This document shows, piece by piece, positions 3,072 through 24,007 of a DNA stretch of 24,007 nt; position 1 is the stretch's first letter; each line of letters begins with the position of its first letter. The stretch is from a virus (lineage: Duplodnaviria; Caudoviricetes). A program made the position numbers and the translations under genes. The DNA is taken from positions 1-24,007 of the IMG/VR virus record IMGVR_UViG_3300037484_000530, one strand, 5' to 3'. Under the pieces are notes generated by a model. The model was given only the letters and a program-made list of their open reading frames with translations. It had not been told where the DNA came from and searched no databases.

Positions 3072-3110
3072 GCGGGGCCGGTGGGTTGTGGTAGCCTGCC
3101 GGCCCCGTTT
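3072..3110 (+). terminator. Probable intrinsic terminator hairpin after the tail gene
   Basis: GCGGGGCCGGTGGGTT (3072-3087) pairs with AGCCTGCCGGCCCCGT (3093-3108), allowing G-U pairs. It starts about 10 nt after the TAA stop; the U-tail is short. Confidence 0.65.
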
Positions 3111-3175
3111 GAGGATAAACTCAATGTGGTTAAACATCCCGCTAGGATCGGTTCTCTTACAGAAGGTGCCAAAAG

Positions 3176-3493
3176 ATGTGCGGAGGATGCGGCGGTCCGA
3201 TGACCAAGAGAAAGGCGAGGATGGACGAGAAACAGAAGCCGATCGTCAAGGACGACGGGAGCCTCCTGTTCACGAAGATAGCTCCGGCGCTGCCGGGGTA
3301 CAGACATGACCCCGACAACCCGAAGCGTTTGATTGCAGACTTGGTAGCTTGCTTTCATCGGTTGACGCTACCAATGATGTTGAAGGATGGGACATACCGG
3401 GTTGTCAACCAATGCAACAACCCGGTATGTCAATGGCGGGGTAAAGAAGTGGATAATAGCATCTGCAAGGACTGTCCGCTCAGGAACGTTTGA
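3176..3493 (+). CDS. Hypothetical Cys-rich protein (possible Zn-binding); start may be 3176, 3200 or 3221
   Basis: ORF with CFHR, CNNPVC and CKDCP motifs; fills the space between the terminator and the convergent operon. Confidence 0.6.
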   Translation: MCGGCGGPMTKRKARMDEKQKPIVKDDGSLLFTKIAPALPGYRHDPDNPKRLIADLVACFHRLTLPMMLKDGTYRVVNQCNNPVCQWRGKEVDNSICKDCPLRNV

Positions 3494-3674
3494 ATCTGTT
3501 CCAGATGAGTAGACAAACTCCTACAATGCTAATAGCTACCAAAAATGCGAGCATTGCTTCCGGTGAATCCCGCTGCGGTGATCCAGAGGGTTCATCCCAA
3601 ATCGGGTTGAGTGGGTTCAACGGGGACAACGGGTTTGCCGGATGGAAAGGACTACAAGGATCTAGCGGGTCCAT
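3480..3674 (-). CDS. Small membrane protein with N-terminal (N/S/D)-P-(L/F) repeats
   Basis: MDPLDPCSPFHPANPLSPLNPLNPIW followed by one hydrophobic helix (AMLAFLVAISIVGVCLLIW). AAAGG RBS upstream of ATG 3674; last gene of the leftward operon. Confidence 0.6.
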   Translation of the reverse strand: MDPLDPCSPFHPANPLSPLNPLNPIWDEPSGSPQRDSPEAMLAFLVAISIVGVCLLIWNRFKRS

Positions 3675-3684
3675 AAGCAACCTT

Positions 3685-4326
3685 TCATGGAATGTGTCCT
3701 AAGACCATTTCGTTGTAGACGTCCGCAGTTGCGATGCAGTCTTGAAGCGCGTCATGCGCTTTGAGATTCTTCACTTTCAACTGACTGCATAGGTACGCCA
3801 AGTTTGATTTCGGAAATGGCACCTTCGCCGGTAGAATGCACAGCGTGTCCTTGGCGTACCTGTCGTTCAGATACTGGGCGACTGGCAAGGTGTCTCGATA
3901 CCACGGATGAAAAAAAGACTCGAAGCTAGTCACGCCGAGCCAGTCCATCATGAAGCTGCGATCGAAAGGCCAGTTCTGGGCGACCGGGACCAGCTTCTTT
4001 CCTTCCGGCAGAAGTGGCGGGCGTCGCTCGGTTCGGACCTTCAGCTTCTCGAACCACTCGTCGAACAGGTCGGCAGCGTCCCACGGATCGAGGGCGCGTT
4101 GCATCTTCTGTGCGAATTCCATCCGCGAGACCTTGACGGCTTTCATGTCAATGTTCTCGGGACGCTTGGGTCGCAATTCAAGATAGAATGGCGTTACGCG
4201 CTTATCTGGTTTGATATTATCATCAAGAATCAGAACGCAGACTTGCCAGATGTCGTGGAAACCGGGAATCGTTCCTGTAGTTTCCACGTCAACGGCGGCC
4301 AGTAGATTCCCGTTAAGGTGAATCAC
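3685..4326 (-). CDS. DEDDh (DnaQ/RNase T-like) 3'-5' exonuclease
   Basis: ExoI VDVETTG, ExoII QNWPFD, ExoIII HDALQD. Confidence 0.88.
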   Translation of the reverse strand: MIHLNGNLLAAVDVETTGTIPGFHDIWQVCVLILDDNIKPDKRVTPFYLELRPKRPENIDMKAVKVSRMEFAQKMQRALDPWDAADLFDEWFEKLKVRTERRPPLLPEGKKLVPVAQNWPFDRSFMMDWLGVTSFESFFHPWYRDTLPVAQYLNDRYAKDTLCILPAKVPFPKSNLAYLCSQLKVKNLKAHDALQDCIATADVYNEMVLGHIP

Positions 4327-4898
4327 TTACGCGGCCCTCCGAAAATCTGCTCACCGATCCAAATGACCTGGTCGTTGAGGGCGCGGAGGTCTCCCTTATT
4401 AGAGACCTTGAAGTGCCACTCTTCCCAAGAATCCAGTTCGGTTTCACGCCCGTCCGTAGCCATTTCGCCATCGCGATCCATACGGACAAGCGTGCCACCG
4501 CACGCCTGAATCTTGGTCGCTTCGTTCGTGAACCCCATGTCCTTGACCAGGATTACGTCAGCCGTAATGCCGCCTCTGAGAACAAAATCAATCCACGTGT
4601 CGCTGTACACGTCGCGAAGAGCGTTGCCGACCTTGATCCAAATTTGCCTGGGAGTCATCCCGATGGCCGGTAGGATCACTTCCTTGTCGGGGTAGTTCGA
4701 CTCATAGTGGATGCCGGGTTGTAAGCCCGCCCACTTGTAGAGTTGGTGGCTGATGTCTTTGAGTTTATCCGCAAAACCCACCTTACGAACCTGGAGTTCG
4801 GGGTGTTCCTTGCGGAGCCAGTTGACCATGAAGTTGGCGAACGTGTCCTTGCCGCGACCCTTCTTGTATCCGATTCCGACGATTGTCTGTTGACTCAT
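4323..4898 (-). CDS. Deoxynucleoside monophosphate kinase (T4 gp1-like P-loop kinase)
   Basis: N-terminal GYKKGRGKDT P-loop, FADKLK, TPRQIWIKVG and D-x-x-F-x-NE pattern typical of phage dNMP kinases; 4-nt overlaps with both neighbours. Confidence 0.82.
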   Translation of the reverse strand: MSQQTIVGIGYKKGRGKDTFANFMVNWLRKEHPELQVRKVGFADKLKDISHQLYKWAGLQPGIHYESNYPDKEVILPAIGMTPRQIWIKVGNALRDVYSDTWIDFVLRGGITADVILVKDMGFTNEATKIQACGGTLVRMDRDGEMATDGRETELDSWEEWHFKVSNKGDLRALNDQVIWIGEQIFGGPRK

Positions 4899-7582
4899 TG
4901 CACCAGCTTTCCATCATAGAGACGCCAGGGCGAGCTAGCCGCCGGCTTCTCGTGCTCGTTGAAGGTTAAGTTGCCCAAGTAGAAATCCGCGCCTTCACGC
5001 ATGTTACGACCTTTTGGGAAGCACCGCGGTAGTTCACGGCCTACACGTATCTTTGACCAGTTGCCGACCTCTTCGGGGTCCAACCACTGAGTGAATCTCT
5101 CGAAGAACTCCCCGTATTTGACGAGGCAGCCGTCTACCTTGTAACAGCATTCGTCGATGAACGCTTCGAGGGCGCTCATGTTGTTCCGAGAGACGTGCTT
5201 CTTCTCCTGAGTTTCGAGCACCGGAATCACGAGTCGTCCGTCTGGATGCGGAATCTCAATAGATATAATCGAACCGAGGAAGTCTGACGCTTCCTTTTCC
5301 AGGAGCTGGTAGAACCGGGCTTCTGGAATTTCTTCGTCGAGAGGTTTGACATAGCTCACGGTGATTCTAGTATCACCAGTGAAAATCGGGCAGAACGTGA
5401 TGCTGTTCGCCGTCTGGACGAAGTGCAAGCAGTTACGAATCTGGTACGGAGTTTGTCCCTTCTTGTGGACCGAAATGTACTTGGAAGTCACCCATTCCTT
5501 GATCCTAGATCGGGCATCCCGATTCTTGGACAAGTCGAGTTCTTCCACGTAGCACAGGATCGCGGACTCAAGTTCGCCTGTAAAGCCGCCTTGGCTCGTG
5601 AGAGCGGTCTTTCCGTCAACGTATCCTTTCGTCATGAGTAAACTGAGCGCTTGATGGAAAGAACTCTTCCCGGTATTCTCTTCCTCGGAGAAGAAGAACA
5701 AGTATGGCAGATGTTCGGTCGGCCGCTGGAACAGCGAAGCGACCCACATCTTGAGATATTCACCGCCGGTCATGATTCCATTTGCTTGACACCACGTGTT
5801 GTGCAGGACCGCGTCATTCAGGCCGTTGCCGCAATGGTTGAGAATCTTGTCCCACGTCGGGTGCTCGAATGGCCCTTCGAGTTTCGGCTTGAACCGAAGC
5901 TGAGCGGCCCCACGGTTCCACTGTCGGTCGCCGGGGAACTCGTCCTCGAATGGTTTGTTCACGAGAGTCCAGCCACGCATTACGCAATTACCCAGAACGG
6001 TATTTATCTCGCGGTCGCTGAAGTTCATGCTCTTCAAAGCTAACTTCGCGTGGTGTATCGGCTCGGTCTGCCATCCTTTACCCGAATTGATGACCCAACC
6101 GTAATCTTCGCTTGAGTCTGTAATCAAGTGCCGAACTATGTCGTCGTGGTTTCCGACTTCGGGTTCAGAGGCGGGTGCGGCTTTGACGTTGAAGATTTTC
6201 TTCCACCAACCGCCGTCCTCTTTCCATTCCTTCATATCGCCGCCGTTGTCTGACGCTTCGCGTTTAATCTCAATAATCAAGCGGCCATCCTTCTTGTGCT
6301 GCTTGAGCACAGTCTGTCGGGCGGACGCCCACGGAGGCAGCTTAACTTGAGCACCGAGAGCCTCGGCCACGGTCTTGGCGACCTCCGCCTCTTGGAACAC
6401 GAATCCGCCGGACTCCTGTTCGATTCCGTTCAGGGACCGGGAAGCAATTTTGAGGTCGGGTTCCTGATTATAAAAGCAACGTGTCCGCCCTTGCCCGTCC
6501 TGGTCCCAAGATGCGTGCTCCTGCACGTCGGAGTATCTACGCACGACCCAAGCCCCTTTACGGAGCGGGAAGGCGTAGCAGTTGTGATCGGCTCCGTGAT
6601 TCTTGCCGATCGCGATGGTGTCGAAAATGCCTTTGAGATTAAGCTCAACATGGGCACGTTTCAGGTCGGCCGTGTGGGCGACCATCATCCAATGGTCCTG
6701 GTCCCACCACCATTGCGCACCGTTCTCGTCCAGGAACGCGTGCAACTTGAGATGCATGGCGTCCAGTTTGATACGTGGTCGCGTGCCGCAAAGTTCCTCG
6801 AACTCATCGACTTCGGTTGATTCGATGTAACGCGGCAGGTTCTTACGGCGGTTGCCTTTGACTACCTCAAGATGATCGGTCCAGTTGACTGGGATATCGT
6901 TCAAGACTTCGCCCTGTTTGACGAGGCGGAGTCCGTCCGTTCCCTTCATCTTGCGTGCCCAGACCCACATATTTCCGCCGCAACAATCGACTTTGCTTTT
7001 GAAATCAAAGCCGGTCTTCGCGGACAACATACCCAGGATCGCACGACCTAGGGCTGCGTGCTCGGAATGATTCTCTGTTGGGACGTTCGGGAGAAAAACG
7101 TAGAGATGGTAGCCCTTGCCAGACGTGGATTTACGAACCGTGATCCACGGAATTGACATCGCCGCTGCACTGACTTCGTGCAGTTCCTCGGCTGTGAGTC
7201 CCTGCTCATGGTTGGCAATTGAGTCGAAATCGTAAGCCACCCAAAGGCTTTCACGTTTCTTCCAGTTCCAACCCGTCATCCCGATCGCCTCAGCGTGCTG
7301 GCCTAAAGGCCATGTCATTTTCTTTGGCGAATATTCGGGCGCAGTCTTGGCCTTGTAGGGTATGCGGAATGATTTCCATATCAACGTCGGATCTTGAGGG
7401 TCCGCCCAACCGTGCCACGTCTTGCCTTCGTACTCCTTAGTGACACGCACGCCGTTGTCCTGCGCGGCGTTAACCTGAATTTCCATGTCCTCGTTATACA
7501 GATCAGCAAGGTCGCGAATGGTGTTAGCTTCGAGAAAGAGTTTGATCGCTTCAGTTTGATACATTGAGTTTATTCTCTCCAT
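4895..7582 (-). CDS. Primase-helicase: N-terminal AEP/Prim-Pol domain plus C-terminal P-loop (SF3/NrS-1-like) helicase; true start may be ATG 7564
   Basis: AEP motifs AYDFD and RKSTSGKGYHLYV; Walker A EENTGKS, Walker B CYVEE, TAN motif; C-terminal winged-helix-like region. Confidence 0.82.
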   Translation of the reverse strand: MERINSMYQTEAIKLFLEANTIRDLADLYNEDMEIQVNAAQDNGVRVTKEYEGKTWHGWADPQDPTLIWKSFRIPYKAKTAPEYSPKKMTWPLGQHAEAIGMTGWNWKKRESLWVAYDFDSIANHEQGLTAEELHEVSAAAMSIPWITVRKSTSGKGYHLYVFLPNVPTENHSEHAALGRAILGMLSAKTGFDFKSKVDCCGGNMWVWARKMKGTDGLRLVKQGEVLNDIPVNWTDHLEVVKGNRRKNLPRYIESTEVDEFEELCGTRPRIKLDAMHLKLHAFLDENGAQWWWDQDHWMMVAHTADLKRAHVELNLKGIFDTIAIGKNHGADHNCYAFPLRKGAWVVRRYSDVQEHASWDQDGQGRTRCFYNQEPDLKIASRSLNGIEQESGGFVFQEAEVAKTVAEALGAQVKLPPWASARQTVLKQHKKDGRLIIEIKREASDNGGDMKEWKEDGGWWKKIFNVKAAPASEPEVGNHDDIVRHLITDSSEDYGWVINSGKGWQTEPIHHAKLALKSMNFSDREINTVLGNCVMRGWTLVNKPFEDEFPGDRQWNRGAAQLRFKPKLEGPFEHPTWDKILNHCGNGLNDAVLHNTWCQANGIMTGGEYLKMWVASLFQRPTEHLPYLFFFSEEENTGKSSFHQALSLLMTKGYVDGKTALTSQGGFTGELESAILCYVEELDLSKNRDARSRIKEWVTSKYISVHKKGQTPYQIRNCLHFVQTANSITFCPIFTGDTRITVSYVKPLDEEIPEARFYQLLEKEASDFLGSIISIEIPHPDGRLVIPVLETQEKKHVSRNNMSALEAFIDECCYKVDGCLVKYGEFFERFTQWLDPEEVGNWSKIRVGRELPRCFPKGRNMREGADFYLGNLTFNEHEKPAASSPWRLYDGKLVQ

Positions 7583-7776
7583 GCGAACCAGGAGCGAATG
7601 GCTACTAACGCACAGAACCCGTCAACCGCAAGTATGTCCCACATGCTCAAGTGTATCGCGTAAATGCACCAAATGAAGTTTCCAGCGAAGCTCAGAATCC
7701 AAGCGTGTCGATTCTTGTTTGATAGTCCAATCAACGCGAACAAAAGGACTGCATTTCCAAGCCACCCTAACGTCAT
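7570..7776 (-). CDS. Small 3-TM membrane protein, PnuC/SemiSWEET half-transporter-like
   Basis: Three hydrophobic segments with 'KNRHAWILSFAGNFIWCIYAI' and C-terminal 'SWFAWR'; GAAAGGA RBS upstream. Confidence 0.6.
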   Translation of the reverse strand: MTLGWLGNAVLLFALIGLSNKNRHAWILSFAGNFIWCIYAIHLSMWDILAVDGFCALVAIRSWFAWRE

Positions 7777-7798
7777 TTCACTGTTAGTCCTTTCTGAA

Positions 7799-7870
7799 AG
7801 TTGAGTTTATTCTCAGGATCTCAATTTGAGGAGTTGAGTTTATTCTCAGGACGCTTGATTATAAACTCAA
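7799..7870. repeat. Left operator array: exact 20-bp direct repeat AGTTGAGTTTATTCTCAGGA (7799-7818, 7832-7851) plus TTGATTATAAACTCAA (7855-7870)
   Basis: Read directly from the sequence; three copies of the 16-bp TTGA-N8-TCAA motif. Confidence 0.85.
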
Positions 7871-7910
7871 ATCAGCGCAGAATCTCGATTAAAAGCGAAA
7901 GTGTCGCCAG

Positions 7911-7946
7911 TCTATGCTATCGGCATTACAGAAAATTGTTGCGCTG
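7911..7946 (-). promoter_or_regulatory. Putative leftward promoter CAGCGCAAC-N12-TGCCGATAGCATAGA
   Basis: Reverse-strand copy of 8185-8220 with identical spacing. Confidence 0.5.
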
Positions 7947-8184
7947 CCGTTGTAAAGTCTTGCGCCGCATAGGGTTACAACTATTCCCGTTTACCGATCT
8001 TACATCAGGCGTATAGGGAAAATCTCAACTCAAAATTTACTAGTAAGGGAATGTAAATCGGGCAATCTTGTATCTTGTCACTTGCTTGACGCAAACCGTT
8101 TCCAGCAAACGCTTTACGTCAAACTAGTGTACATTTGCTATGGCGCTTTATATGTGCGCGTAGTGGCGAACAAAATGCGGAAAA

Positions 8185-8220
8185 CAGCGCAACTAGTTGG
8201 CGTTTTGCCGATAGCCTAGA
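8185..8220 (+). promoter_or_regulatory. Putative rightward promoter CAGCGCAAC-N12-TGCCGATAGCCTAGA
   Basis: Two blocks are conserved with the leftward copy while the 12-nt spacer is not. GCCGATAG resembles the sigma-28 -10 element GCCGATAA. Confidence 0.5.
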
Positions 8221-8255
8221 GTAGCAGGAATCGCCGCGCCAGATGGAACGCTGAT

Positions 8256-8360
8256 TTGAGTTTTCTATCAACCGGCTTTTGAGAATAAACTCAGTCAACG
8301 ACGCAGACGATTCTGATGACAAACTCAATTCTTGTTTCCACCTTTGGAGTATTTTCTCAA
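8256..8360. repeat. Right operator array: 16-bp motif at 8256-8271, 8279-8294, 8313-8328 and a weaker copy at 8345-8360 covering the RBS and start of the ParB-like gene
   Basis: TTGAGTTTTCTATCAA, TTGAGAATAAACTCAG, CTGATGACAAACTCAA, TGGAGTATTTTCTCAA. Confidence 0.8.
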
Positions 8361-9343
8361 TGAGCGTAGGCACCCCGAAACTGGTGGCACTCAGCGAAAT
8401 TCGTCCGAACCCGGTTGCCCTCCGTGCGGTTGATCGCGAAGCCGAGGCTTACATTCAACTGCGAGATTCGATCGCGGACCCGGCCATTGGCCTGTTGAAT
8501 CCGATCAACGTCCGCGAGCGCAGCGAGGAAGTGGACGGCGAGAAAGTCACCTTCTATGAGATCATCGACGGTCTGCATCGGTACACAGCCTGCTCCGAAA
8601 TCGGCTTCGAGGAACTGCCGGTTCTCGTGAAGAGTCTCGAAGAGACCGAATCGTTTCTGGCCCAGATCATCGGCAACGCGATGCGCGTCGAGACGCGCCC
8701 CGTCGAGTACACGAAGCACTTGCAGAGAATAATCTCAGCGAACCCGACGTGGACGATCGCCGACCTGGCCACGAAAGTGCATCGCAGCCCGGCATGGTTG
8801 AACCAGCGGTTCGGCCTGTTGAAGCTGGCCCCGTCCGTCCAGACGTTGGTCGATGATGGCAAAATCGCCGTGTCGAACGCGGTCATTTTGGCCAAGCTGC
8901 CTCACGACGAGCAGTTGAACTACATCGACAGCGCCATGACCATGATCACCGCCGAGTTCGGCCCGATGGTGAACACTCGCGTCACCGAACTGAAGAAGGC
9001 CGAGAAGGAAGGTCGTGAGGCGACCGAGGACGTGTTCGTTCCCGTCGCGAAGCCCCGCAAGCGCAGCGAGCTTGAGACCGAACTCGAACAGCAAGCCGTG
9101 CTGCCCGGACTCGTGGCCGATTGTGATACGAAGGAAAGCGCCGCCCTGAAGACGCTGGCCTGGACCCTTCAGCTTGATCCCGCGAGCGTCGCGTTGGCTC
9201 AGGCCCAGTGGGTCGAGAAGAAGCAGCAGCTTGAGGAGGAGAAGGCAAAGCGGAAGGCCGAGCGGGCCAAGCAGAAGGCAGCCGAAGCCGCCGAAGCAGC
9301 CGCCAAAGCCCAGGAAGAAGCAGCCGCCGCGACCCGCGGTTGA
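8360..9343 (+). CDS. ParB/Srx-family protein 1 (ParB N-terminal CTPase-like domain, HTH, Ala/Lys/Glu-rich C-terminal coil), 327 aa
   Basis: LSEIRPN, GLLNPINVR, YEIIDGLHRY, N-x-x-R (NAMR), HTH-like TIADLATKVHRSPAWLNQRFGLLKL. GGAG RBS at 8346-8349 supports ATG 8360 over TTG 8279. Confidence 0.85.
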   Translation: MSVGTPKLVALSEIRPNPVALRAVDREAEAYIQLRDSIADPAIGLLNPINVRERSEEVDGEKVTFYEIIDGLHRYTACSEIGFEELPVLVKSLEETESFLAQIIGNAMRVETRPVEYTKHLQRIISANPTWTIADLATKVHRSPAWLNQRFGLLKLAPSVQTLVDDGKIAVSNAVILAKLPHDEQLNYIDSAMTMITAEFGPMVNTRVTELKKAEKEGREATEDVFVPVAKPRKRSELETELEQQAVLPGLVADCDTKESAALKTLAWTLQLDPASVALAQAQWVEKKQQLEEEKAKRKAERAKQKAAEAAEAAAKAQEEAAAATRG

Positions 9344-9388
9344 TTTCAAACTCAATTCGACGTGACGTTAGGTAGTTAAGCTCCCAAT

Positions 9389-9431
9389 ACACATCCCGCC
9401 GGGAATGATTCCTGGCGGGATGTGTTTGTTT
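9389..9431 (+). terminator. Intrinsic terminator or strong hairpin
   Basis: ACACATCCCGCCGGGAAT (9389-9406) / ATTCCTGGCGGGATGTGT (9408-9425), followed by TTGTTT. Confidence 0.75.
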
Positions 9432-9489
9432 GCCGGAACGTAGGGAGCGTGCAACGTGCTTCACCTTTCACTTTTCATCAGAGGCTTTA

Positions 9490-10167
9490 ATGTCAGACTC
9501 ATTGATTCCCTTTCAGGCCGGTGGCGAACTTTCGACTCAACTCGCGGACGACATGGAACTCTTGAAGGAAGTGTCCTCCGGCGGTGAGTTTCTCCCGTAC
9601 CTACAGCTTTTCACCACCAAGTCGGACGCCGTGACCGAAGGCAAGATCGGCGGCGGGCATTACGGCCTGGTTCGTGATGGCAACATCACCGACCTCGGCA
9701 AGGAATTGAACGTCATCGTTGTGACCGTGCGTGCCCGTGCCTACGAGAAGGCGGATGATGGCGAAATCACGGTCGTCTACGACAAGACCGATCCCGAGTA
9801 CGTTCGCATCCAAGCGTTGCAGGCCGAGGGCGTCCAAGGCTGCATGGCTGGCCCCGAATTCCTGTTCTGGATTCCCGACGAGAAGACGTTTGCGACGTTC
9901 TTCTGCGGCTCCAAGACCCTGAAGCGTGAGGCTCGGAAGTTCAATCCGTTCCTCGGCGGCAAGGGCGTGTGCAACATGCGGGTGCACCTGATCGACAACG
10001 GCAAGTACAAGTGGCATGGTCCGGTTGTGAACACGTGTTCGGCCGCTCCGTCTGCCCTTCCCTCTGCCGAAGATTCGGACAAGGAAATCACGAAGTTCAA
10101 GAACCCGCCGAAACCCAAGAAGGGCGAGCGTGTTGCGGCGGGCGACACCCAGGAAGTGACTCGCTGA
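9490..10167 (+). CDS. Putative phage single-stranded DNA-binding / replication protein
   Basis: 'FLPYLQLF..KS' N-terminal motif, beta-rich aromatic core ending in KYKWHGPVV, location in the replication module, GAGG RBS before ATG 9490. Family assignment is inference. Confidence 0.5.
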   Translation: MSDSLIPFQAGGELSTQLADDMELLKEVSSGGEFLPYLQLFTTKSDAVTEGKIGGGHYGLVRDGNITDLGKELNVIVVTVRARAYEKADDGEITVVYDKTDPEYVRIQALQAEGVQGCMAGPEFLFWIPDEKTFATFFCGSKTLKREARKFNPFLGGKGVCNMRVHLIDNGKYKWHGPVVNTCSAAPSALPSAEDSDKEITKFKNPPKPKKGERVAAGDTQEVTR

Positions 10168-10177
10168 GGATAAAATC

Positions 10178-10860: not shown

Positions 10861-11051
10861 TTGGGTATTTCACGATCCAACGATACAAGGGTGGAGTTCT
10901 TTTGTACGAGGAACGTGTAGAGAATAAAATCACCGGGGAAGGTTTCAAAGGCGTCACCTTTTATGAGAAACCGTCAGGAGTATCTTTCTTCCCGCCGTCG
11001 GAACAGTCTCATCAGGCTGATCCGGTCGAAACACGATCTGCGGGACGCTGA
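10857..11051 (+). CDS. Hypothetical protein
   Basis: ATGA-coupled to the upstream ORF; its C-terminal part overlaps the next ORF. Confidence 0.4.
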   Translation: MIGYFTIQRYKGGVLLYEERVENKITGEGFKGVTFYEKPSGVSFFPPSEQSHQADPVETRSAGR

Positions 11052-16188: not shown

Positions 16189-18517
16189 CACCGAGACCTG
16201 CGGATTCCATGGCCTTGCCGTCCTACTACAATACGCTGTCGAGGACGGCCCGATCACGCTATTCGAGCCGTGGCGGAGACCGTTCAAAGATACCATCGCT
16301 CTGATCGAGTGGATGGTCACGCATAACATCATCGGCTTCAACCTGGCGTTCGACTGGTTCCACATCAACAAACTCTACACGACGTGGCTCCAATACATCA
16401 AGAACGGCGGGTCGCCGGACGATATCCCGTACCATAACATCGATGAAGTGGCCGTCGCGGAAGAACAGGCACGCTTCCTGCGGATTTGCGTCAAGCCGAT
16501 AAGCGCGCTAGACCTGATGTTGCACGCCCGCAAGGGTCCGTTCCAAAGTCTCATGTCCCGCAACGATATTCGCGTGCGTCGCGTGCCTGAGATTATGGCC
16601 GAGCGTCTCAGGACTGAACTAGAAAATAGAGTCTGCCTCGACGGTATCTACTTCAAGAAGCGGAAGAACCAGTACGCTCCGAAGTGGGGAATCTACGATT
16701 CCGTGGACAAAGACGGAAATGTTGATCCCAACTTCAAGGACGTGGTTCTGAAGTTCAATCCTGAAGCCGGTCTGAAAGCACTGGCGGAGTATGTTCTCGG
16801 AGTCAAGTCTGAGAATATTCTCACGATGAGCGACCACCTGCCCGAGAAGTTCATGCCGGAAGAAGTCGGCTACGCACCATTCGCAAAGGCGCTAGGACGT
16901 CCTGGTCGGTGGAACGGGGCGTGGCCGGAAGTCATTGATAGGCACATCTTGCATTGGGCATTTAACGCTCGTGCGAGGAAATACGCGACAGACGATATCG
17001 TCTACACCCGCGGCTTGCATCAACACTCAAGTTTTGCTGAAGCCGTTATGGGTGATGATGACAGCGTGTTAGCTTGCATGGTCGGAGCCGTGCGTTGGCG
17101 AAGCTTTCGCGTTGATCTTGAACGAATCAAGCGGCAACGATCTGAAGCCACCCTCAGAGCCGCCAGAGCACCTACTGCACCCAGTGCGGTGATGCGTTGG
17201 TTGGGGTTGGTCATGGACGACGACGAGCGTAAGATATTAGAATCACGAGGAACTGGGGACGTCATTCTTCAGGAAATCGGCGGAACTATCGAAGAGGAAA
17301 AATGTGAGTGCAAAGGTAACAACAAAGAGTGTACCCAGTGTGGTGGGTCAGGTACGATTGAGAAATACGTCGATTACTGGGAAACCGAAGACGGCGACCC
17401 TCACCCTGCGGCTGAACGTGCCCGCGAGGTCAGGAAGGCCCGCGCCGCCAACAAGGAAATAGAACTCTACGACAAGTTGCTCCAGGCGGGGAGATTCCAT
17501 GCCTCGTTCGTCGTGATCGGCACGCTGTCCACACGCATGTCTGGCTCGGACGGCCTGAATCCGCAGGGCATCATCGGCTCTAAGTATGTCCGCGAATGCT
17601 TCCTACTGGCGGACGAGGACGAGCAACTAGACGGCGGCGACTTCGCTAGTTTTGAGGTTTGTATCTCGGCCGCAGTCTACAACGACAAGGGTCTTGAGGC
17701 CGATATCAAGTCTGGCAAAAAGATTCACGCTCTGTTCGCCGAGGCGCTCTTTCCGGATCAGACCTACGATTCGATCATGGAGTCCAAAGGCAGCAAGACC
17801 GGCCGCGACTTTTACACGGACGGAAAGCGCGGTGTGTTTGGTTTGAACTACGGCGGCAATGCCGATACTCTCGTCAAGCGACTTGGCGTCATCAAGGAAA
17901 CTGCCGAACAGGCATTCGCTCGTTTCGAGAAACGCTATCCTGGCGTCAAGAGAGCCAGAATGCGGATTATTGATATGTTCTGCTCAATGCGTCAGCCGAG
18001 AGGCATCGGGACGCAAGTGGAGTGGCATGATCCGGCCGACAAGATCGAGTCCTTGCTTGGGTTCCCCAGATACTTCACCCTTGAGAATAAAATCTGCAAG
18101 GCTCTGTACGATCTGGCTCAAAGCCCGCCGGAAGAATGGAGAGAGGTACGTGTCAAAGTTGTACGTAGAGATCGAACTCAGTCCGCCGCTGGGGCTTGCC
18201 AGTCAGCACTTTACGGTGCGGCTTTTGGACTCCAAGGGTCGTGTATGCGAGCGGCAGCTAACCACGTCATACAGTCAACTGGTGCAGGCATCACGAAGGC
18301 TGTGCAACGTGCTATCTGGGAACTGCAAGAAGCAGGCATCCACTTATTCAGGGTGTCACCGCTGAATATACACGACGAAATCATGGCTCCATGTTCCCCA
18401 GAAATGAGTTCAAAAGTAACGGAGACTGTACAGAAGAAGGTCGAGGAGTATCGGCCGATCGTTCCTTTGATAGCGATTGATTGGGGTTCTAAACTCAAAA
18501 GCTGGGCGTCAAAATGA
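16112..18517 (+). CDS. polA: Family A DNA polymerase with 3'-5' exonuclease domain (phage PolA)
   Basis: ExoI YLDTET, ExoII GFNLAFD, ExoIII YATDD; TRMSGSDGLNPQGI; motif A DFASFE, motif B GKRGVFGLNYG, motif C IHDE; GAGGAG RBS before ATG 16112. Confidence 0.92.
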   Translation: MILPPTLPETSGDSAIETLTKNLYLDTETCGFHGLAVLLQYAVEDGPITLFEPWRRPFKDTIALIEWMVTHNIIGFNLAFDWFHINKLYTTWLQYIKNGGSPDDIPYHNIDEVAVAEEQARFLRICVKPISALDLMLHARKGPFQSLMSRNDIRVRRVPEIMAERLRTELENRVCLDGIYFKKRKNQYAPKWGIYDSVDKDGNVDPNFKDVVLKFNPEAGLKALAEYVLGVKSENILTMSDHLPEKFMPEEVGYAPFAKALGRPGRWNGAWPEVIDRHILHWAFNARARKYATDDIVYTRGLHQHSSFAEAVMGDDDSVLACMVGAVRWRSFRVDLERIKRQRSEATLRAARAPTAPSAVMRWLGLVMDDDERKILESRGTGDVILQEIGGTIEEEKCECKGNNKECTQCGGSGTIEKYVDYWETEDGDPHPAAERAREVRKARAANKEIELYDKLLQAGRFHASFVVIGTLSTRMSGSDGLNPQGIIGSKYVRECFLLADEDEQLDGGDFASFEVCISAAVYNDKGLEADIKSGKKIHALFAEALFPDQTYDSIMESKGSKTGRDFYTDGKRGVFGLNYGGNADTLVKRLGVIKETAEQAFARFEKRYPGVKRARMRIIDMFCSMRQPRGIGTQVEWHDPADKIESLLGFPRYFTLENKICKALYDLAQSPPEEWREVRVKVVRRDRTQSAAGACQSALYGAAFGLQGSCMRAAANHVIQSTGAGITKAVQRAIWELQEAGIHLFRVSPLNIHDEIMAPCSPEMSSKVTETVQKKVEEYRPIVPLIAIDWGSKLKSWASK

Positions 18518-18744
18518 GCATCTACGAACACATGGGAACCATGATGGAGTTGTTAGGCGACCTGATCGTGAAGAGCGCTCATTGTCAACTCGGTCCAGCC
18601 GATGGTGCCTTATACATGCAACTTTGTTCCACGGTCGAAGAATGGGCCAAAGTGGTAGAGAGGAGCCTTGATGCAGGCCCAAGCCAACGCAACGACAATC
18701 CAAGTCCTCGTTCGGAGGGAGACGCTGAATCTCCGAGCAATTGA
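18514..18744 (+). CDS. Hypothetical protein
   Basis: ATGA-coupled to the polymerase stop. Confidence 0.55.
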   Translation: MSIYEHMGTMMELLGDLIVKSAHCQLGPADGALYMQLCSTVEEWAKVVERSLDAGPSQRNDNPSPRSEGDAESPSN

Positions 18745-19015
18745 CCGGATCATACAATCTGACGTTTTCGTCGACGCATGGCGGCAGGCGACCGTGCAGC
18801 AACGCGAGCAACTATTGCAAGTCCTTGGCAACAAGGATCTAGCTGGCGTGAAGCGATGGGTCGATGCCGTAGGGCCGCGTAACGTGGCCGACTTATCTTA
18901 CCGGGATCTGCGGGACTTGGCTCAACGACACTTGGTCCCGCGATATAGCCGTCTCGACAAAGAGCAACTTATCACGGCATTACGAGGCATAAATGACGAC
19001 TCGATCGCTAAGTGA
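18671..19015 (+). CDS. Protein with C-terminal Rho-N / HeH-like nucleic-acid-binding domain
   Basis: DLSYRDLRDLAQRHLVPRYSRLDKEQLITAL matches the Rho N-terminal helix-extension-helix pattern; AGGAG RBS. Confidence 0.7.
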   Translation: MQAQANATTIQVLVRRETLNLRAIDRIIQSDVFVDAWRQATVQQREQLLQVLGNKDLAGVKRWVDAVGPRNVADLSYRDLRDLAQRHLVPRYSRLDKEQLITALRGINDDSIAK

Positions 19016-19451
19016 CATTCAAGGGCTACTCGACGAGGTTCGCCCGTTCCTCATCATGGCGGGTGTGCCGACGAGACGTGCTCAGATCGCCAAGGGCCTT
19101 GATTATAAAATCAAACAGTGTGCCCGAGCGTTCGACTGGCTGCACCAGTTCTCGCTCAGCCCACAGTTTGAGAAGTTCAAGCAAGTGCGTGCCCTCCGGC
19201 CCGAGGACGTGTGGATCAATTATGCGAATCTTGGTATTACCGGCTTGCGTGAACAGGTTATGTTGAAGGAAGCCGGTAAGGCTCTGATGCTTCGTTGGAA
19301 CGTGAAACGTCCCCGTATGTTCGGCCCAGACAAGCCACCGAAAGAGGAATATCATGAGATCGAAGGGTGTCAACAAGAAGCGAATTGCCCAGGTTCTGAG
19401 GAACAGTGTGTTCAGCCCGACGGAGACGGGACCGCTGAAGGTGATTGCTGA
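18993..19451 (+). CDS. Hypothetical protein
   Basis: ORF in operon with GAGG RBS; carries a 16-bp motif at 19099. Confidence 0.6.
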   Translation: MTTRSLSDIQGLLDEVRPFLIMAGVPTRRAQIAKGLDYKIKQCARAFDWLHQFSLSPQFEKFKQVRALRPEDVWINYANLGITGLREQVMLKEAGKALMLRWNVKRPRMFGPDKPPKEEYHEIEGCQQEANCPGSEEQCVQPDGDGTAEGDC

Positions 19452-19806
19452 GTGTGGCGATCCGCGATATTACAAGCAGCGGGCCATCGAATTGATTCGC
19501 ACGTCCGTTGACACGCCATTCGCCGGCGACGAGATTCAGATGGCAATATCGCTGTTGGCTTTGGCGATCGTCGAGAGTCAACTCAAGAACAACGCAGAGT
19601 TGCTCAAGTACGTGAAGCCTATCGAAAAGCCGTCGCACGTCCCTCCGAAGTCAAACCGCCCTGACTGTGGCGGCGGCATGGACCGTGGTCCCGATTACCC
19701 AGTCACTTGCGGAGGTCAGGGTCTCGAAGACATTGATGACCTGGTAGCCTGCCGCAAAGATCCTGACTACGTCGAAAATATGAGTCGTCAGGGAGGCATG
19801 CACTGA
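19354..19806 (+). CDS. Hypothetical protein
   Basis: GAGGA RBS; its stop overlaps the next start (TGATG). Confidence 0.6.
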   Translation: MRSKGVNKKRIAQVLRNSVFSPTETGPLKVIAECGDPRYYKQRAIELIRTSVDTPFAGDEIQMAISLLALAIVESQLKNNAELLKYVKPIEKPSHVPPKSNRPDCGGGMDRGPDYPVTCGGQGLEDIDDLVACRKDPDYVENMSRQGGMH

Positions 19807-20222
19807 TGCTCCGATCCGCCGCAAGAAACACAGTCTATGTTGCGATTGACGGGGAGCGTGCGTACCAGGACACTCTCGGACCTGACCGGACAGATGGCGA
19901 AAAGAGAACAGTTGGCGATTACATCACCATGCTGTCTCGGTACGTCCGATTGGCACAGGACGCTTGGACGGACAACCCTGGCAACACTCAGGCTCTTGAT
20001 ATTATGCGCAAAGTCGCTGGGATCGCTGTTCACTGTATGGAGGATCACGGCATCGTAACGCGTGCAGTTCCAAGCAAAGGCGTTCCCTATCCTGAAGGCA
20101 AAATGCCGTCCTTCATAGATTTCGTGAAAAGTGGAGATTTCTCAAGAAGATGGCTGGACGTTGCTGAGGAAATCCTCAACCCGTCGCCAGATTCCGATGA
20201 GATGAAAGCGTCCCTTTATTAA
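19806..20222 (+). CDS. Hypothetical protein, possibly a degenerate MazG-like all-alpha NTP pyrophosphohydrolase fold
   Basis: 'AIDGERAYQD' and 'MRKVAGIAVHCME' resemble phage MazG-like proteins, but the EExxE metal motif is not evident; GGAGG RBS. Confidence 0.45.
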   Translation: MLRSAARNTVYVAIDGERAYQDTLGPDRTDGEKRTVGDYITMLSRYVRLAQDAWTDNPGNTQALDIMRKVAGIAVHCMEDHGIVTRAVPSKGVPYPEGKMPSFIDFVKSGDFSRRWLDVAEEILNPSPDSDEMKASLY

Positions 20223-20234
20223 ATCGAGAACCAA

Positions 20235-20432
20235 ATGAACATCTTCGCTTGGGCCGCAACCTTTGGATTCACTGTCAAACAAGAACGCGGTAGCTCCAAC
20301 ACTTACGACGTAACGATTCGGTGCAACACCACCAGCTTCACCCTCACGCCCGGTCAGATTTTCGAGGACGGTTTGCGGGGTGCTCTGTTTGAACTCTACC
20401 AGGATATTGAACCCAAGCCGAGGAAACGATGA
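20235..20432 (+). CDS. Hypothetical protein
   Basis: 65-aa ORF abutting the next gene. Confidence 0.55.
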   Translation: MNIFAWAATFGFTVKQERGSSNTYDVTIRCNTTSFTLTPGQIFEDGLRGALFELYQDIEPKPRKR

Positions 20433-21140
20433 ATGGTCCTCATCAAGAAGATCCACTCCGGGAAAGGGCCGGAGAAGAAAATCCAGGAGGACCTAATCAA
20501 GTACCTCAGGATGCGGGACTGGTTCGTCCGCCCGACACACGGAGGCAGCTACCAAGCCGGCGTGCCTGACTTGTACGCTGTAAAACGCCGGTACGGCGCT
20601 CGGTGGATCGAAATGAAGAATGTGGTGAACTACCGCTTCACGGACGATCAGATGCGAGTCTTCCCGCAGTTCTCGAAGAATGGTGTCGGAATCTGGGTGC
20701 TTCAGGGAGCGACAGACGACGACTACAACAGGCTCTTCGGTGCTCCGAATTGGGCATCATACTTGCCGGTGGCACAAGTCTACACCCGGAATCGCACCCG
20801 CAAGGAAGTGATTCGAGCACCGTTGAAGAAGGCCGGGAGCGGCCCGGAAATGGTGATTCAGGAGAAGATAATCAAGGCTCTTGAAGCGGACGGTTGGTAC
20901 TGCTTAACAATGGCAGGCTGTCTGTTTCAAAGCGGCTTTCCCGATATCTTCGTTTGCAAGAAGGGTTGCGGTACGCGTTGGGTGGAAGTCAAAAATCCAG
21001 CCGGCTACCAGTTCACCGGCGCTCAGCTTGAGACGTTTCCGCGTATGATGGCTGAAGGCGTCGGCATTTGGATATTAACCTCAGAGACCCAGATTGACCG
21101 GCTAAACGGCAAACCTAACTGGACGGAGTACCTCAAGTGA
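20433..21140 (+). CDS. Tandem two-domain VRR-NUC / PD-(D/E)xK nuclease (Holliday-junction-resolvase-like)
   Basis: Two homologous halves: GPEKKIQ..GVPDL..RWIEMKN..FTDDQ..GVGIWVL..PNW and GPEMVIQ..GFPDI..RWVEVKN..FTGAQ..GVGIWIL..PNW. Confidence 0.85.
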   Translation: MVLIKKIHSGKGPEKKIQEDLIKYLRMRDWFVRPTHGGSYQAGVPDLYAVKRRYGARWIEMKNVVNYRFTDDQMRVFPQFSKNGVGIWVLQGATDDDYNRLFGAPNWASYLPVAQVYTRNRTRKEVIRAPLKKAGSGPEMVIQEKIIKALEADGWYCLTMAGCLFQSGFPDIFVCKKGCGTRWVEVKNPAGYQFTGAQLETFPRMMAEGVGIWILTSETQIDRLNGKPNWTEYLK

Positions 21141-21376
21141 GCAGTATTCTGGTGTTCACTCGTTTGGACGGCACGCGTCTCGCGATTGATCGCTACGCGT
21201 TCAATTCGATACGTGAGGAACTGAACGGTAGCGTGAAACTGATTCGGGTGTTCTATACCCGCGGCGATGAGTCCCAAGACGCTCTGATCCAAGAATCCTT
21301 CGACGGGGTTCTCGAACAGATCAGGGCAATAGACGATCCTCTAGGAGTGCAGAAATGTGCGACAAGTTCGTCCTGA
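21137..21376 (+). CDS. FlbD/SwrD-like small protein, copy 1
   Basis: FTRLDGTRLAID...IREE...IQESFDGVLEQI resembles the FlbD pattern (LTRLNG..F.LN...IE..E...V.ES..EV...I). Confidence 0.55.
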   Translation: MSSILVFTRLDGTRLAIDRYAFNSIREELNGSVKLIRVFYTRGDESQDALIQESFDGVLEQIRAIDDPLGVQKCATSSS

Positions 21377-21591
21377 CACAGAAGAACGGCGCTCGGATCA
21401 TGATCGAGCGTCATACCGTGAGTATGGTGGAAGAAGTGGTCGGCGATGAGTCAGCTATCGTTACCCACGCGATGTACGGTGAGCCGCACGCAATCAAGGT
21501 TCTCGAATCATTCGATGCCGTGATGGCGATGCTCTATCCGGAGGAACATTCTCCCGATTCGATGACGGCGCAGCCAGGAGGAATGTATTGA
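21355..21591 (+). CDS. FlbD/SwrD-like small protein, copy 2
   Basis: LTQKNGARIMIE...VEEV...VLESFDAVMAML; paralogous to the preceding ORF; AGGAG RBS. Confidence 0.55.
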   Translation: MCDKFVLTQKNGARIMIERHTVSMVEEVVGDESAIVTHAMYGEPHAIKVLESFDAVMAMLYPEEHSPDSMTAQPGGMY

Positions 21592-22049
21592 ACCCTGAAC
21601 TCGTGTTCGTTATCATCAAACCGGACGCTTTGGAGCGCGGCCTGTGCGGGAGAATTATCTCACGCATCGAGGACACGTATCTCCGAATCGACGGTATGCA
21701 ATCTCGACGCAAGACACGGGCCTGGTGCGACGTGCATTACGCCCACCTGCGGCAACTGTCGTTCTACGATAAGCTGGTTGAGTTCATGACCACAAGGTCG
21801 ATTCTGGGCTTCGGCGTCTCTGGCCCCAACGCGATCAAGCGAATGAGGGCGCTTATTGGTCCGACGAAGCCTTGGGAAGCTCCGCCCGGAACGATCCGCG
21901 GCGACTTCGGCGGTTATCCTGCAATGTACAACCTGATACACGCGTCTGATTCTGAAATCAATGCTCACAACGAGCTACAATGGTTCTATGATATCGTGAC
22001 AGACGCGCGGCCGGAGACAGCCAATGCCAATTCGGGAGTGTCGTCTTAA
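21588..22049 (+). CDS. ndk: Nucleoside diphosphate kinase
   Basis: IIKPDALERGL, HYAHL, APPGTIRGDFG, catalytic NLIHASDS; AGGAGG RBS before the TTG start. Confidence 0.95.
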   Translation: MNPELVFVIIKPDALERGLCGRIISRIEDTYLRIDGMQSRRKTRAWCDVHYAHLRQLSFYDKLVEFMTTRSILGFGVSGPNAIKRMRALIGPTKPWEAPPGTIRGDFGGYPAMYNLIHASDSEINAHNELQWFYDIVTDARPETANANSGVSS

Positions 22050-22191
22050 CGGGAAGCCTGGGTACAAGTACGGTGAGAGTGGCAAGTGCTACACGTACAC
22101 ACCCGGCAACACCCAATCGCGTGTCGCGGCTCGACAAAAGGCCGAGAAACAAGCGGCTGCTATCAAAGCGAGTCAAGCGAGGGAAAAATGA
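22024..22191 (+). CDS. Small basic hypothetical protein (55 aa, not in ORF track)
   Basis: MPIRECRLNGKPGYKYGESGKCYTYTPGNTQSRVAARQKAEKQAAAIKASQAREK. GGAG RBS; its stop overlaps ATG 22188. Confidence 0.7.
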   Translation: MPIRECRLNGKPGYKYGESGKCYTYTPGNTQSRVAARQKAEKQAAAIKASQAREK

Positions 22192-22661
22192 ACGTAGGCG
22201 TCTATTTCGACTTGTCCGACCTCTATCATCGCGTCAACAGACGCTTTGGTCGGAAACTCAATTATGGTGCGGTGCTGGAGAGCTTCAAGTTCTTCGGCAA
22301 CATTTCACGCTCGTGTGCCTACGGTATCCAGATGACGAACGAAGCAAGCAGCTTCATCGCGTGCCTGGAACGGGTCGGCATCTACGCTCGATTCAAGCGA
22401 CCCGAAATCATCCGTTGCGGTGATCGTGAAATCAAGCGGGCGAACTGGGAAGCCCAGATGGCTCTCGATATCGTACGTGACATAGAGGCGAGCGAACTGG
22501 GCATCGTGATTCTCGGCTCTGGCAGCGCACGCATGGTGCCGCTGGTGGAGTACGTACGTGAGCGCGGGGTGAAGTGTCTCGCGTTCGGCGTCGGCATTGA
22601 GAAGGAACTCAAGAAGGTAGTGGACGGTGTAATCGACGTGAATCCGGACGCCCTCGAATGA
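22188..22661 (+). CDS. NYN (LabA/DUF88, PIN-like) domain protein with degenerate active site
   Basis: VGVYFDLSDLY, QMALDIV, VILGSGSARMVPLVEYVRERGVKC and ELKKVVDGVID match the NYN layout; the SGDGDF motif is replaced by SGSARM. Confidence 0.75.
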   Translation: MNVGVYFDLSDLYHRVNRRFGRKLNYGAVLESFKFFGNISRSCAYGIQMTNEASSFIACLERVGIYARFKRPEIIRCGDREIKRANWEAQMALDIVRDIEASELGIVILGSGSARMVPLVEYVRERGVKCLAFGVGIEKELKKVVDGVIDVNPDALE

Positions 22662-22739
22662 TCGGATTCTACGAGGAAGTCCCCGAAGGTATCTTGGTCG
22701 TGATGTATTGGCCTTTCAGACTCATACCAGGTATTGACT

Positions 22740-23090
22740 ATGATAACGTGCGGCCTGATTTCAGTAGCAGACGCGAGCAGCTTCAGCGAGGCGCTCAAGA
22801 TCGCGATCCAGAGGAACGGGATTCAGGAGAGTAATATCGCCCACATTAACTGCGCTTACGATGCTGTCAAGAACGGCTACATCGTACAGATCACGCACGT
22901 CCCGAATACGATCTGCGTCGGTGGCGTGCTTGACGGGTTGCACACGAGTCACACCGGGCAGGTATTCGTGACCGACAACGACCAGACGTACGTGAAGAAG
23001 CAATTTGGTCCGGTCTTGGCCTACGTCGAAAGCCGGCTGTCGTGCGACGATGTGATGGAAGCGCTTTTCAAAGTCTATGGTGCTAAATGA
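22740..23090 (+). CDS. Hypothetical protein
   Basis: 116-aa ORF whose stop is ATGA-coupled to the next gene. Confidence 0.6.
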   Translation: MITCGLISVADASSFSEALKIAIQRNGIQESNIAHINCAYDAVKNGYIVQITHVPNTICVGGVLDGLHTSHTGQVFVTDNDQTYVKKQFGPVLAYVESRLSCDDVMEALFKVYGAK

Positions 23091-23269
23091 ACGACCTCGA
23101 CGGAACCAAGCTGCTGGTGTTGGGACGCGAGGACGCCAAGCTACTCATGCGTTGTCTCGACGCCCCGAAGGATTTTGAAATCATACCTGAATGGATTCGG
23201 CTCTACAAGAAGATCAAGGAAGTGGCCGAGGATACTACGATCCCCGTTCCCTTCGGGAGCAACTGGTAA
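23087..23269 (+). CDS. Hypothetical protein
   Basis: ATGA and TAATG overlaps with both neighbours. Confidence 0.6.
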   Translation: MNDLDGTKLLVLGREDAKLLMRCLDAPKDFEIIPEWIRLYKKIKEVAEDTTIPVPFGSNW

Positions 23270-23703
23270 TGAGCACCACCCAAGAGATTCTGGTTAGCGA
23301 GCGTGAATTATTTGCGAAATACGGTTCGACAGCGGGTGACGTTAACCAACGTGCCTACCATTGCGCGCTCGAGAGAGCTGGTCTTATGGGTGTTGGTATT
23401 ATTGATTCCAGAATCGAATACCAAAGTCGTGACCAGTTATACCGAGTTTTCGTTGAGTATGAAGAACTGAAGCCGGTTGAGCCAGAAGGCATCACGATCT
23501 CAATCAAGGAAGCTCAGATGCTGTTTCACTATCTGGCCTCGCACGCGTGCCCATGGAGTGATTCTGACAATTGGATCAAACTATACGAGAGGTTGAAAAA
23601 TGCGTCCTCTGACCCAACCGAACCGATGGTCGTGCACGGTGGCAGCCGCGGCCATGTCTATGGACGTTCCCTTGGAGACCCTGATATCGACCATCGGCCA
23701 TGA
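23269..23703 (+). CDS. Hypothetical protein
   Basis: GGGAG RBS and TAATG overlap support ATG 23269. Confidence 0.6.
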   Translation: MSTTQEILVSERELFAKYGSTAGDVNQRAYHCALERAGLMGVGIIDSRIEYQSRDQLYRVFVEYEELKPVEPEGITISIKEAQMLFHYLASHACPWSDSDNWIKLYERLKNASSDPTEPMVVHGGSRGHVYGRSLGDPDIDHRP

Positions 23704-24007
23704 CGGCAGCGCGGTCGTGTTCCCGGAACTTCCCGTACCCATGCGTTACGCGGGATTCGATATGCAGGAAATCGTGGACGCCGCCTTAGCGAACGGCTGG
23801 AGCATGACGCACGTCGAGGCACGCCCGCGGGTGACGCCAGATGGGTCGCACGTGCGTGACCTATTTCCTGAGGATAAAATCCAGCCACGGATGATGCGAT
23901 ACTTCGACAACTACAGCGGTATCGCAATTGGCATGCGCACGAGCGGGCAGTGGTGGCATTCGGTAGCGTGGGACCACATTCACCGGCTCTGGTTCGACCC
24001 GAGCGGC
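23600..24007 (+). CDS. Peptidase C39-like (papain-fold) cysteine protease, truncated by window end (not in ORF track)
   Basis: Open frame MRPLTQPNRWSCTVAAAAMSM...QWWHSVAWDHIHRLWFDPSG with Q-x5-C, H and DP in C39 order; GAGG RBS. Confidence 0.7.
   Translation, partial: MRPLTQPNRWSCTVAAAAMSMDVPLETLISTIGHDGSAVVFPELPVPMRYAGFDMQEIVDAALANGWSMTHVEARPRVTPDGSHVRDLFPEDKIQPRMMRYFDNYSGIAIGMRTSGQWWHSVAWDHIHRLWFDPSG

Follow-up and report, generated by a model that had tools for sequence, protein, structure and literature searches.

Here we analyze the complete 24-kb virus record IMGVR_UViG_3300037484_000530 (Caudoviricetes; 24,007 nt, hereafter the window) and find that a short, degenerate DNA palindrome is tiled along it, that this tiling is strongly selected even inside codons, and that variants of the palindrome recur family-wide, with clusters of sites flanking a mirror-symmetric region next to the gene for ParB1, a protein of ParB helix-turn-helix (HTH) architecture. 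We favor, at a probability of roughly 0.55, a reading in which ParB1, made early, would coat the phage genome by way of these dense palindromes while promoter-proximal clusters provide feedback. The record belongs to a large family of uncultured, tailed phages with at least 126 ParB1 homologues; 83 non-redundant loci of at least 8 kb each were analyzed, and relatives are labeled as genomes (G) or loci (L).

A 14-bp palindrome selected inside codons

The first-pass annotation of this DNA had described a dispersed TTGA-N8-TCAA palindrome with an ATAAA core, occurring about 24 times. All 24 listed copies are present where it placed them, but the count was too low: the site is better described by a symmetric 14-bp core, TGAK-NN-YR-NN-MTCA, of which the window holds 37 exact copies (TGAK-N6-MTCA), 21 of them absent from the earlier list. 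Likewise, the literal TTGA-N8-TCAA form is enriched (14 copies in the window versus 0.47 in dinucleotide shuffles, maximum 3) but too narrow, matching just 8 of the 24 listed copies; against the new core, 16 of the 24 are exact, 7 have one mismatch and the copy at 18483 has two. ATAAA is present in just 9 of the 37 exact sites. The spacing is sharply defined, with TGA-Nk-TCA peaking at k=8 (40 copies, versus 2-17 at other k), 31 of the 37 exact sites have YR at their center, and one-mismatch sites are in excess too (30 versus 11.5 +/- 3.3). Additional position weight matrix matches exist in the window beyond the copies listed here:

Exact TGAK-N6-MTCA sites (14-bp core, strandless, together spanning 7..22611), first third, starts: 7, 119, 1673, 2021, 3110, 4212, 4577, 5362, 6113, 6634, 7195, 7370, 7720
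Exact sites, middle, starts: 7802, 7835, 7856, 8257, 8280, 8314, 9341, 9675, 9756, 10165, 10416, 11049
Exact sites, last, starts: 11698, 12646, 13370, 14408, 15886, 16810, 17695, 19100, 20165, 21947, 22421, 22598
One-mismatch copies from the earlier list: 4759, 6464, 7564, 8345, 10918, 18081, 23868 (spanning 4759..23883 with the next)
Half-site with two mismatches: 18483

Selection at the DNA level, suspected from the outset, is borne out by a codon-preserving control: genes of the window carry 25 TGAK-N6-MTCA sites, versus 2.1 +/- 1.4 in 1000 synonymous-codon shuffles (maximum 9). Furthermore, the places at which synonymous choice alone could make a site are filled far more often than in relatives without the motif. 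Specifically, 26 of 50 such opportunities are used in the window (open reading frames, ORFs, of at least 150 residues) and a fraction of 0.24-0.45 in three relatives sharing the motif, versus 0.03-0.07 in four relatives without it. The number of opportunities is itself raised over residue-shuffled proteins in G001 (146 versus 100-119), G002 (192 versus 132-154) and G006 (219 versus 139-148), with no clear excess in the window (50 versus 34-51). Synonymous use together with these surplus opportunities therefore indicates that the site has shaped codons and, in the relatives, probably amino acids too. Among the sparse contigs matching the window, a variant at 9756 breaks a weak site, a single case.

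Copies had also been said to sit at junctions, and those at 3109, 7564, 9340, 10164, 13369 and 15885 do so, but 25 of the 37 exact sites are wholly intragenic. The site is a symmetric palindrome, and its apparent same-sense bias amounts to little inside ORFs (10 AA-right copies, 6 TT-left). So slight a bias may follow from Lys/Asn versus Phe usage.

Each lineage carries its own variant

Conservation in relatives, proposed earlier as a check, is found as motif tiling present genome-wide, each lineage with its own variant. In near-complete relatives, the lineage's variant occurs 78-114 times per genome (0.9-1.5 per kb). Whole-record counts are 88, 78 and 114 in G001, G002 and G006, versus 2, 9 and 2 for reversed-pattern controls; G003 has 114 copies of GATT-N5-AATC, G007 has 88 of G[AG]TT-N5-AA[CT]C, and G010 has 182 of GCT-N7-ATC (26 for its control). 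Variants include TGAG/K-N6, TGAT-N6, GATT-N5 (GAT-N7), GATG-N4, GGTT-N5, GCTC-N4 and GAT-N5, such that either the arms (GAT, GAG, GCT, GGT) or the spacer (5-7 bp) switch between lineages. Switches of arms and spacer occur even between sister lineages, for example L027 versus L044 and L047 versus L038, and a single genome, G006, tolerates two spacers (96 N6-type and 41 N7-type copies). A GAT core is common to loci spanning 33-61% GC. Under a strict test of the 83 loci, 49 show a dyad at z-scores of at least 5, 10 show the half-site only and 24 show neither; half-site enrichment only is likewise seen in the genome G004.

Individual positions turn over: only 2-4 of 13-20 intragenic sites (4/19, 2/20, 3/16) are shared with relatives at ~68% identity, so density, not place, is kept. 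Gaps between sites also show a slight excess of evenness over random placement in the window (p 0.025), G002 (p 0.033) and G006 (p 0.006). Beside its main motif, G002 (L176-L180) carries two secondary enriched dyads, TGCA-N5-TGCA and CTAG-N5-CTAG.

A mirror-symmetric control region between primase and ParB1

The gap between the divergent primase and ParB1 genes holds a mirror-symmetric region of ~530 bp, whose layout is kept in relatives. In each arm, three or four sites lie to the outside of a conserved GCGCAAC...TAnnnT element, and the starts of primase and ParB1 carry additional sites. The features concerned are as follows.

7801..8328: mirror-symmetric control region; inverted arms, center ~8064, middle site-free
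7906-7946/8185-8225; 7852-7877/8249-8274; 7835-7848/8280-8293; 7801-7820/8309-8328: inverted arm pairs
7914..7944, - strand: putative leftward promoter-like element, GCGCAAC ... TAnnnT, from alignment
8187..8217, + strand: putative rightward promoter-like element, GCGCAAC ... TAnnnT, from alignment; TATAAT here in L003
7801..7870: three clustered sites on the left (7802, 7835, 7856), lying downstream of the leftward element
8256..8362: three clustered exact sites on the right (8257, 8280, 8314) and one-mismatch site 8345, which lies across the ribosome-binding site and start codon of ParB1
7564..7582, - strand: one-mismatch site over the primase start region
4895..7582, - strand: primase-helicase, first gene of the leftward operon; 5 exact sites inside
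8360..9343, + strand: ParB1, with ParB N-terminal domain, HTH and C-terminal helices; first gene of the rightward replication operon
14755..15666, + strand: ParB2, a second ParB-HTH protein; start 14755 or 14779

Among the 59 loci that have a defined motif and an adjacent primase, 55 carry their own motif variant in this gap, at 4.7 sites per kb versus 1.4 elsewhere, and just 1 of 170 gap sites lies within 100 bp of the mirror center. The GCGCAAC...TAnnnT elements look like twin divergent promoters; a sigma-70 scan of 7400-9600 returned no promoters. The earlier label of operator fits the clusters beside these elements, but not the bulk of the sites, which are intragenic and shift position between relatives. 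The same region may also be a bidirectional replication origin. GC skew in G002 tracks gene direction and locates no origin.

Several further observations concern this region and its surroundings. Half-sites in tandem, repeated every 5 bp (GATTTGATT or GAGTTGAGT type), adjoin the promoter-like elements at 8250-8262, 7863-7875 and 8021-8031 of the window, and the same type occurs in the primase-ParB1 gaps of L050, L161, L047 and L122, even where the genome-wide arms are GCT; possibly they reflect a second binding mode or a second binder. An ECF-like (extracytoplasmic function) sigma factor is encoded in 6 of 7 relatives (L178:19198-19743 and homologues) and is a candidate reader of the promoter-like elements. 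Directly after ParB1, within the rightward operon, lies a terminator-like strong hairpin of 17 bp with a T-tail (9389-9425), preceded by the motif site on the ParB1 stop codon.

ParB1 as the candidate reader of the palindrome

The first-pass annotation had proposed a phage-encoded protein, most plausibly one of two ParBs, as the binder. A dimeric binder is supported, and a phage ParB is the best candidate, the one residue-level hint favoring ParB1 over ParB2. Pfam searches returned ParB_N and HTH_ParB, with HTH domains in both proteins, and both score above the TIGR00180 cut-off; they are distant paralogues (21% identity) and the only proteins of the core gene set with a recognized dimeric HTH. 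A predicted model of ParB1 (pLDDT 89) matches ParB, Noc and KorB structures in a fold search. GxxR is kept in 83/83 ParB1 and 60/60 ParB2 sequences. Beyond this, ParB2 has near-canonical AG(H/F/Y)RR (AGHRR in the window) and ENLxR motifs, and ParB1 has DGLHR and AQxxxN. A flexible HTH dimer would accommodate the degenerate arms, the YR center and the use of two spacers by a single genome.

The hint toward ParB1 comes from its recognition helix. In a pooled comparison, made post hoc on the surviving part of a failed N148+E149 rule, Glu149 is present in 7/7 GCT-arm loci versus 24/101 others, and GCT arms occur in 0/50 Gln149 loci; this column ranks 2 of 2913, with GCT arms needing 5-7 changes on trees. 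Glu can accept a hydrogen bond from A or C, and Gln favors A. By counting from the GKS motif, residue 149 corresponds to Caulobacter ParB N178, which is listed as parS-contacting (PMC7383237). Such co-variation hints that ParB1 is the reader.

A parS role in the partition sense, the other half of the earlier proposal, is not upheld. ParA families PF13614 and PF01656 were each found in 0/5 relatives (2 and 3 of those at least 90% complete, respectively), a ParA-binding motif, defined as in PMC12704722, occurs in 0/83 ParB1 and 0/60 ParB2 sequences, and there are ~100 or more sites per genome. Searches for tyrosine integrase (0/5 relatives), HsdS (0/5 genomes) and Cro/XRE-type HTH (HTH_3; 0/5 genomes, with ORFs under ~60 residues, such as 14633-14782, outside the family screen) were also negative. 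With none of these in the genomes searched, a partition centromere is unlikely.

Some relatives encode a third, more distant ParB-like ORF (L180:2879-3910 in G002, L181:692-1738 in G001, and G006:39063-39269). Contig L011, considered as a ParB-free control, was unusable because it has a weak ParB_N match. ParB1 residues ~274-326 form a long, Ala/Lys/Glu-rich C-terminal helix that is kept in the family; to our knowledge, such a helix is not typical of chromosomal ParB.

A proposed genome coat, and what weighs against it

In the reading we favor, ParB1 would be made early, as the first gene of the rightward replication operon, and its dimer, a partner-less ParB-type protein, would bind each 14-bp palindrome (one per ~0.5-1 kb). 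If ParB1 clamps and slides like other ParBs, dense sites would let it coat the entire chromosome: KorB has a sliding reach of up to 1.5 kb, so a ParB-type clamp loaded this often would span the whole genome. A density above 1 per kb, the loss of position and the mild evenness suggest that coverage rather than place matters. As a phage-specific nucleoid, the coat would organize and mark replicating DNA; compaction, protection, anti-silencing and replication are all candidate purposes that it may serve. Meanwhile, the 3-4 sites just downstream of each putative promoter and those over several start codons would exert negative feedback on both replication operons, and ParB2 may act as a partner or turnover factor.

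A bolder and more tentative extension, which we consider possible but doubtful, casts the palindrome as a lineage-specific self barcode under drive, in which site-rich genomes or recombinant segments, better coated by a ParB1/ParB2 clamp, would be preferentially protected, replicated or packaged, and so favored in co-infected cells. If true, such drive would account for coding DNA being saturated much as it is by uptake sequences and for the reshaped proteins, as well as for the repeated rewriting of ~100 sites upon change of one helix residue or of dimer geometry; it would amount to a ParB-built phage nucleoid that distinguishes self from non-self DNA.

Several results weigh against a ParB1 coat. 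The 24 of 83 ParB1 loci noted above have neither dyad nor half-site in their flanks, and the whole genome G005 has both ParBs yet no clear motif; the evenness of gaps falls short of significance in both G001 and G007, and in G003 the result depends on the pattern. ParB1 lacks the Gln/Glu/Glu positions of solved ParBs, which we take to be the catalytic residues, and its clamp behavior is uncertain because of this. Phylogeny names no binder: motif class needs 15-20 changes on all of 12 gene/domain trees (~31 when shuffled), so the fit is equal on the ParB1, ParB2, polymerase, primase and helicase trees. In training, N148+E149 in the ParB1 recognition helix was confined to the four GCT-arm loci, but this rule, fixed beforehand, failed on 54 further rows, none of which has the pair; the three new GCT loci lack N148, although all three carry E149, found in 11 of the 54. 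With kinship controlled, Glu149 is not significant either (4 or 3 supported pairs, sign test p 0.5-1), the independent pairs including none in the wrong direction and being too few for significance, and one primase column outranks it. Nor does any residue explain the N6/N7 spacer switch, the best ParB1 column (0.88) being equaled or beaten by polymerase and helicase columns.

Alternative readers and functions

A host protein might read the site instead: a nucleoid factor, a transcription factor, or a methyltransferase of the bipartite Type I/IIB-like kind that marks the DNA to the advantage of the phage. GAT-N5/6/7-ATC does resemble a symmetric bipartite restriction-modification site, some genomes encode DNA methyltransferases, and the tracking of phage lineage by the motif on every gene would also be expected if it tracked host lineage. 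We nonetheless regard a host reader as unlikely: arms and spacer are degenerate within one genome, unlike an enzyme site, and switch between sister lineages while the phage control region changes in concert, and the GAT core is the same from 33 to 61% GC. For a Type I/IIB enzyme in particular, the failure to find HsdS in 5 genomes, the non-core status of the methyltransferases, and the mixed arms and two spacers of one genome all argue otherwise. Another core phage protein is a somewhat weaker contender, namely ParB2 alone or, for self-recognition in packaging, the Cys/His-rich gene upstream of terminase, presumably the small terminase. Both are core in 7/7 relatives examined, and the ParB2 recognition helix is highly conserved, like the GAT core, and ParB2 has its near-canonical nucleotide motifs. 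Yet no ParB2 HTH column tracks GCT arms, and L145 retains GATT-N5-AATC despite a degenerate ParB2 helix; no DNA-binding family was matched by either the terminase-adjacent protein or ORF 10178, and two-fold symmetry is not what a sigma factor or packaging ring would be expected to require of its site.

The position of site clusters immediately past both promoter-like elements, and across several start codons, could also reflect classical operators or stoperators, at which ParB1 or another repressor would silence the genome for lysogeny or superinfection immunity, the variants being immunity groups. Lineage-specific variants are known from Cluster A (PMC6550527), and KorB is itself a ParB-family repressor (PMC11790492). 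Against this, the sites here are symmetric with little orientation bias, mostly deep in genes and not kept in position, at two to five times the density of the up to 30 stoperators per genome described for Cluster A; tyrosine integrase and ParA were not found in 5 genomes, nor was serine integrase among 103 proteins scanned, where no dedicated search was made. We judge this improbable, and a dispersed partition centromere of a plasmid-like prophage far more so: both ParBs pass TIGR00180 and the site, 14-16 bp long, is palindromic around a YR center, but ParA and its binding motif are missing as described, and ~100 sites over the whole genome offer no segregation focus. Finally, enrichment as a by-product of codon or amino-acid usage might be read from the sites mapped in homologous genes, 280 of 336 of which fall in one reading frame, clustered at permissive peptides. 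It is refuted by the synonymous shuffles, which retain protein and codon usage yet give 2.1 sites rather than 25, and by relatives with the same proteins and another spacer, which fill just 3-7% of opportunities; there are intergenic clusters as well.

Relation to known systems

The nearest precedent is found in the Cluster O mycobacteriophages, whose 34 palindromes have been without a known function since 2015 (PMC4351075). As described there, these are near-invariant 17-bp sites at mostly the same positions across five genomes, 14 of them intergenic; as here, many are intragenic, and the tailed phages concerned are given as having a ParB-like gene and neither integrase nor parAB. In contrast, the present family has ~80-200 degenerate copies per genome, mostly intragenic and turning over in position; both arms and spacer vary over >100 loci, and the core includes two ParB-HTH genes.

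RK2 has about a dozen KorB operators and a ParA partner. Here, sites are far denser, no ParA was found, and no KorA-like partner was identified (HTH_3 in 0/5 genomes, with ORFs under ~60 residues outside the screen). What is shared is a protein of the ParB family whose palindromic operators are scattered, a few of them close to promoters; in RK2 the KorB clamp slides ~1.5 kb from its operators, and KorA acts as a clamp lock (PMC11790492). In the present family, clusters adjoin two putative promoter-like elements, with most sites intragenic. Noc offers a second parallel, as an orphan ParB paralogue that loads at dispersed 16-bp palindromes and coats DNA for a non-partition purpose (PMC8429893, PMC7383237). 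The N-terminal amphipathic helix of Noc is not apparent in ParB1, which begins with a strand at residues 5-10, and the Noc model TIGR04285 scores just 64 and 85 against a cut-off of 315. Pseudomonas aeruginosa ParB, which binds hundreds of half-parS single arms as a nucleoid-associated protein (PMC5961200), resembles the lineages that show half-site enrichment only, but belongs, as that account has it, to a chromosomal ParABS system with ParA and a far lower site density.

Other dispersed repeats share less with the sites described here. Cluster A stoperators are likewise numerous and lineage-specific in consensus, but are described as asymmetric, oriented with transcription and bound by the immunity repressor of temperate phages, at up to ~30 per genome (PMC6550527); here the consensus is symmetric and orientation bias weak. 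The DNA uptake sequences of Haemophilus and Neisseria, at ~one per kb and mostly coding, raise the frequency of the peptides that they encode (PMC2817400), as opportunities are raised in G006, but are asymmetric bacterial competence signals, and no uptake machinery is implied here. Compared with ParABS, the ParB domain architecture is present, ParA and the ParA-binding motif were not found, and 78-114 spread sites replace a few-site, single-locus centromere. By analogy, its mode of action may resemble that of KorB, Noc or P. aeruginosa ParB at scattered sites, but it would fall outside the ParABS, Noc and stoperator classes.

Orphan ParB proteins are common on phages and mostly unexplained, and the nucleotide choice of ParB clamps is not predictable from sequence (PMC12704722). 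We found no description of this phage family or motif in the literature searched, which covered few subscription papers. The family provides >100 natural protein-site pairs with differing arms and spacers, on which one can ask whether the entire genome of a lytic phage can be coated by a ParB clamp and how ~100 coding sites come to change their specificity; some pairs may prove useful as orthogonal tools for DNA labeling.

Gene content of the window and its relatives

The window contains a tail gene, the leftward exonuclease-kinase-primase operon and the rightward operon, in which ParB1 is followed by two genes of no assigned function, an SNF2 helicase, an exonuclease, ParB2, tRNA-Thr, DNA polymerase A, VRR-NUC, NDK and NYN. 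Common to the family is the order primase | ParB1, ORF 9490, ORF 10178, helicase, ParB2, polymerase. The sequencing run that matches the window best is a sediment metagenome and a possible source of it. No cultured relatives were found, the best phage matches reaching 26-34% identity on a portion of ParB1 or ParB2 and 23-34% on the polymerase, and host assignment gave three matches to metagenome-assembled genomes, all in unrelated taxa. In searches of a protein atlas and the PDB, the terminase-adjacent gene had no match, and a core gene of 313 residues was recognized as a PD-(D/E)XK nuclease. ORF 10178 (10178-10702), core in 8/8 genomes examined, had only weak ThyX-like matches in these searches (E ~0.1); it could be a degenerate thymidylate synthase fold.

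Rfam matched the tRNA alone in the window. Upstream of tRNA-Thr, tRNA-like remnants at 15721-15810 carry the T-arm-like GGTTCGAGTCCC twice, and neither is called by ARAGORN or Rfam. Finally, two VRR-NUC domains are fused in one ORF (20433-21140) in the window and in G001, while other relatives have a single domain.

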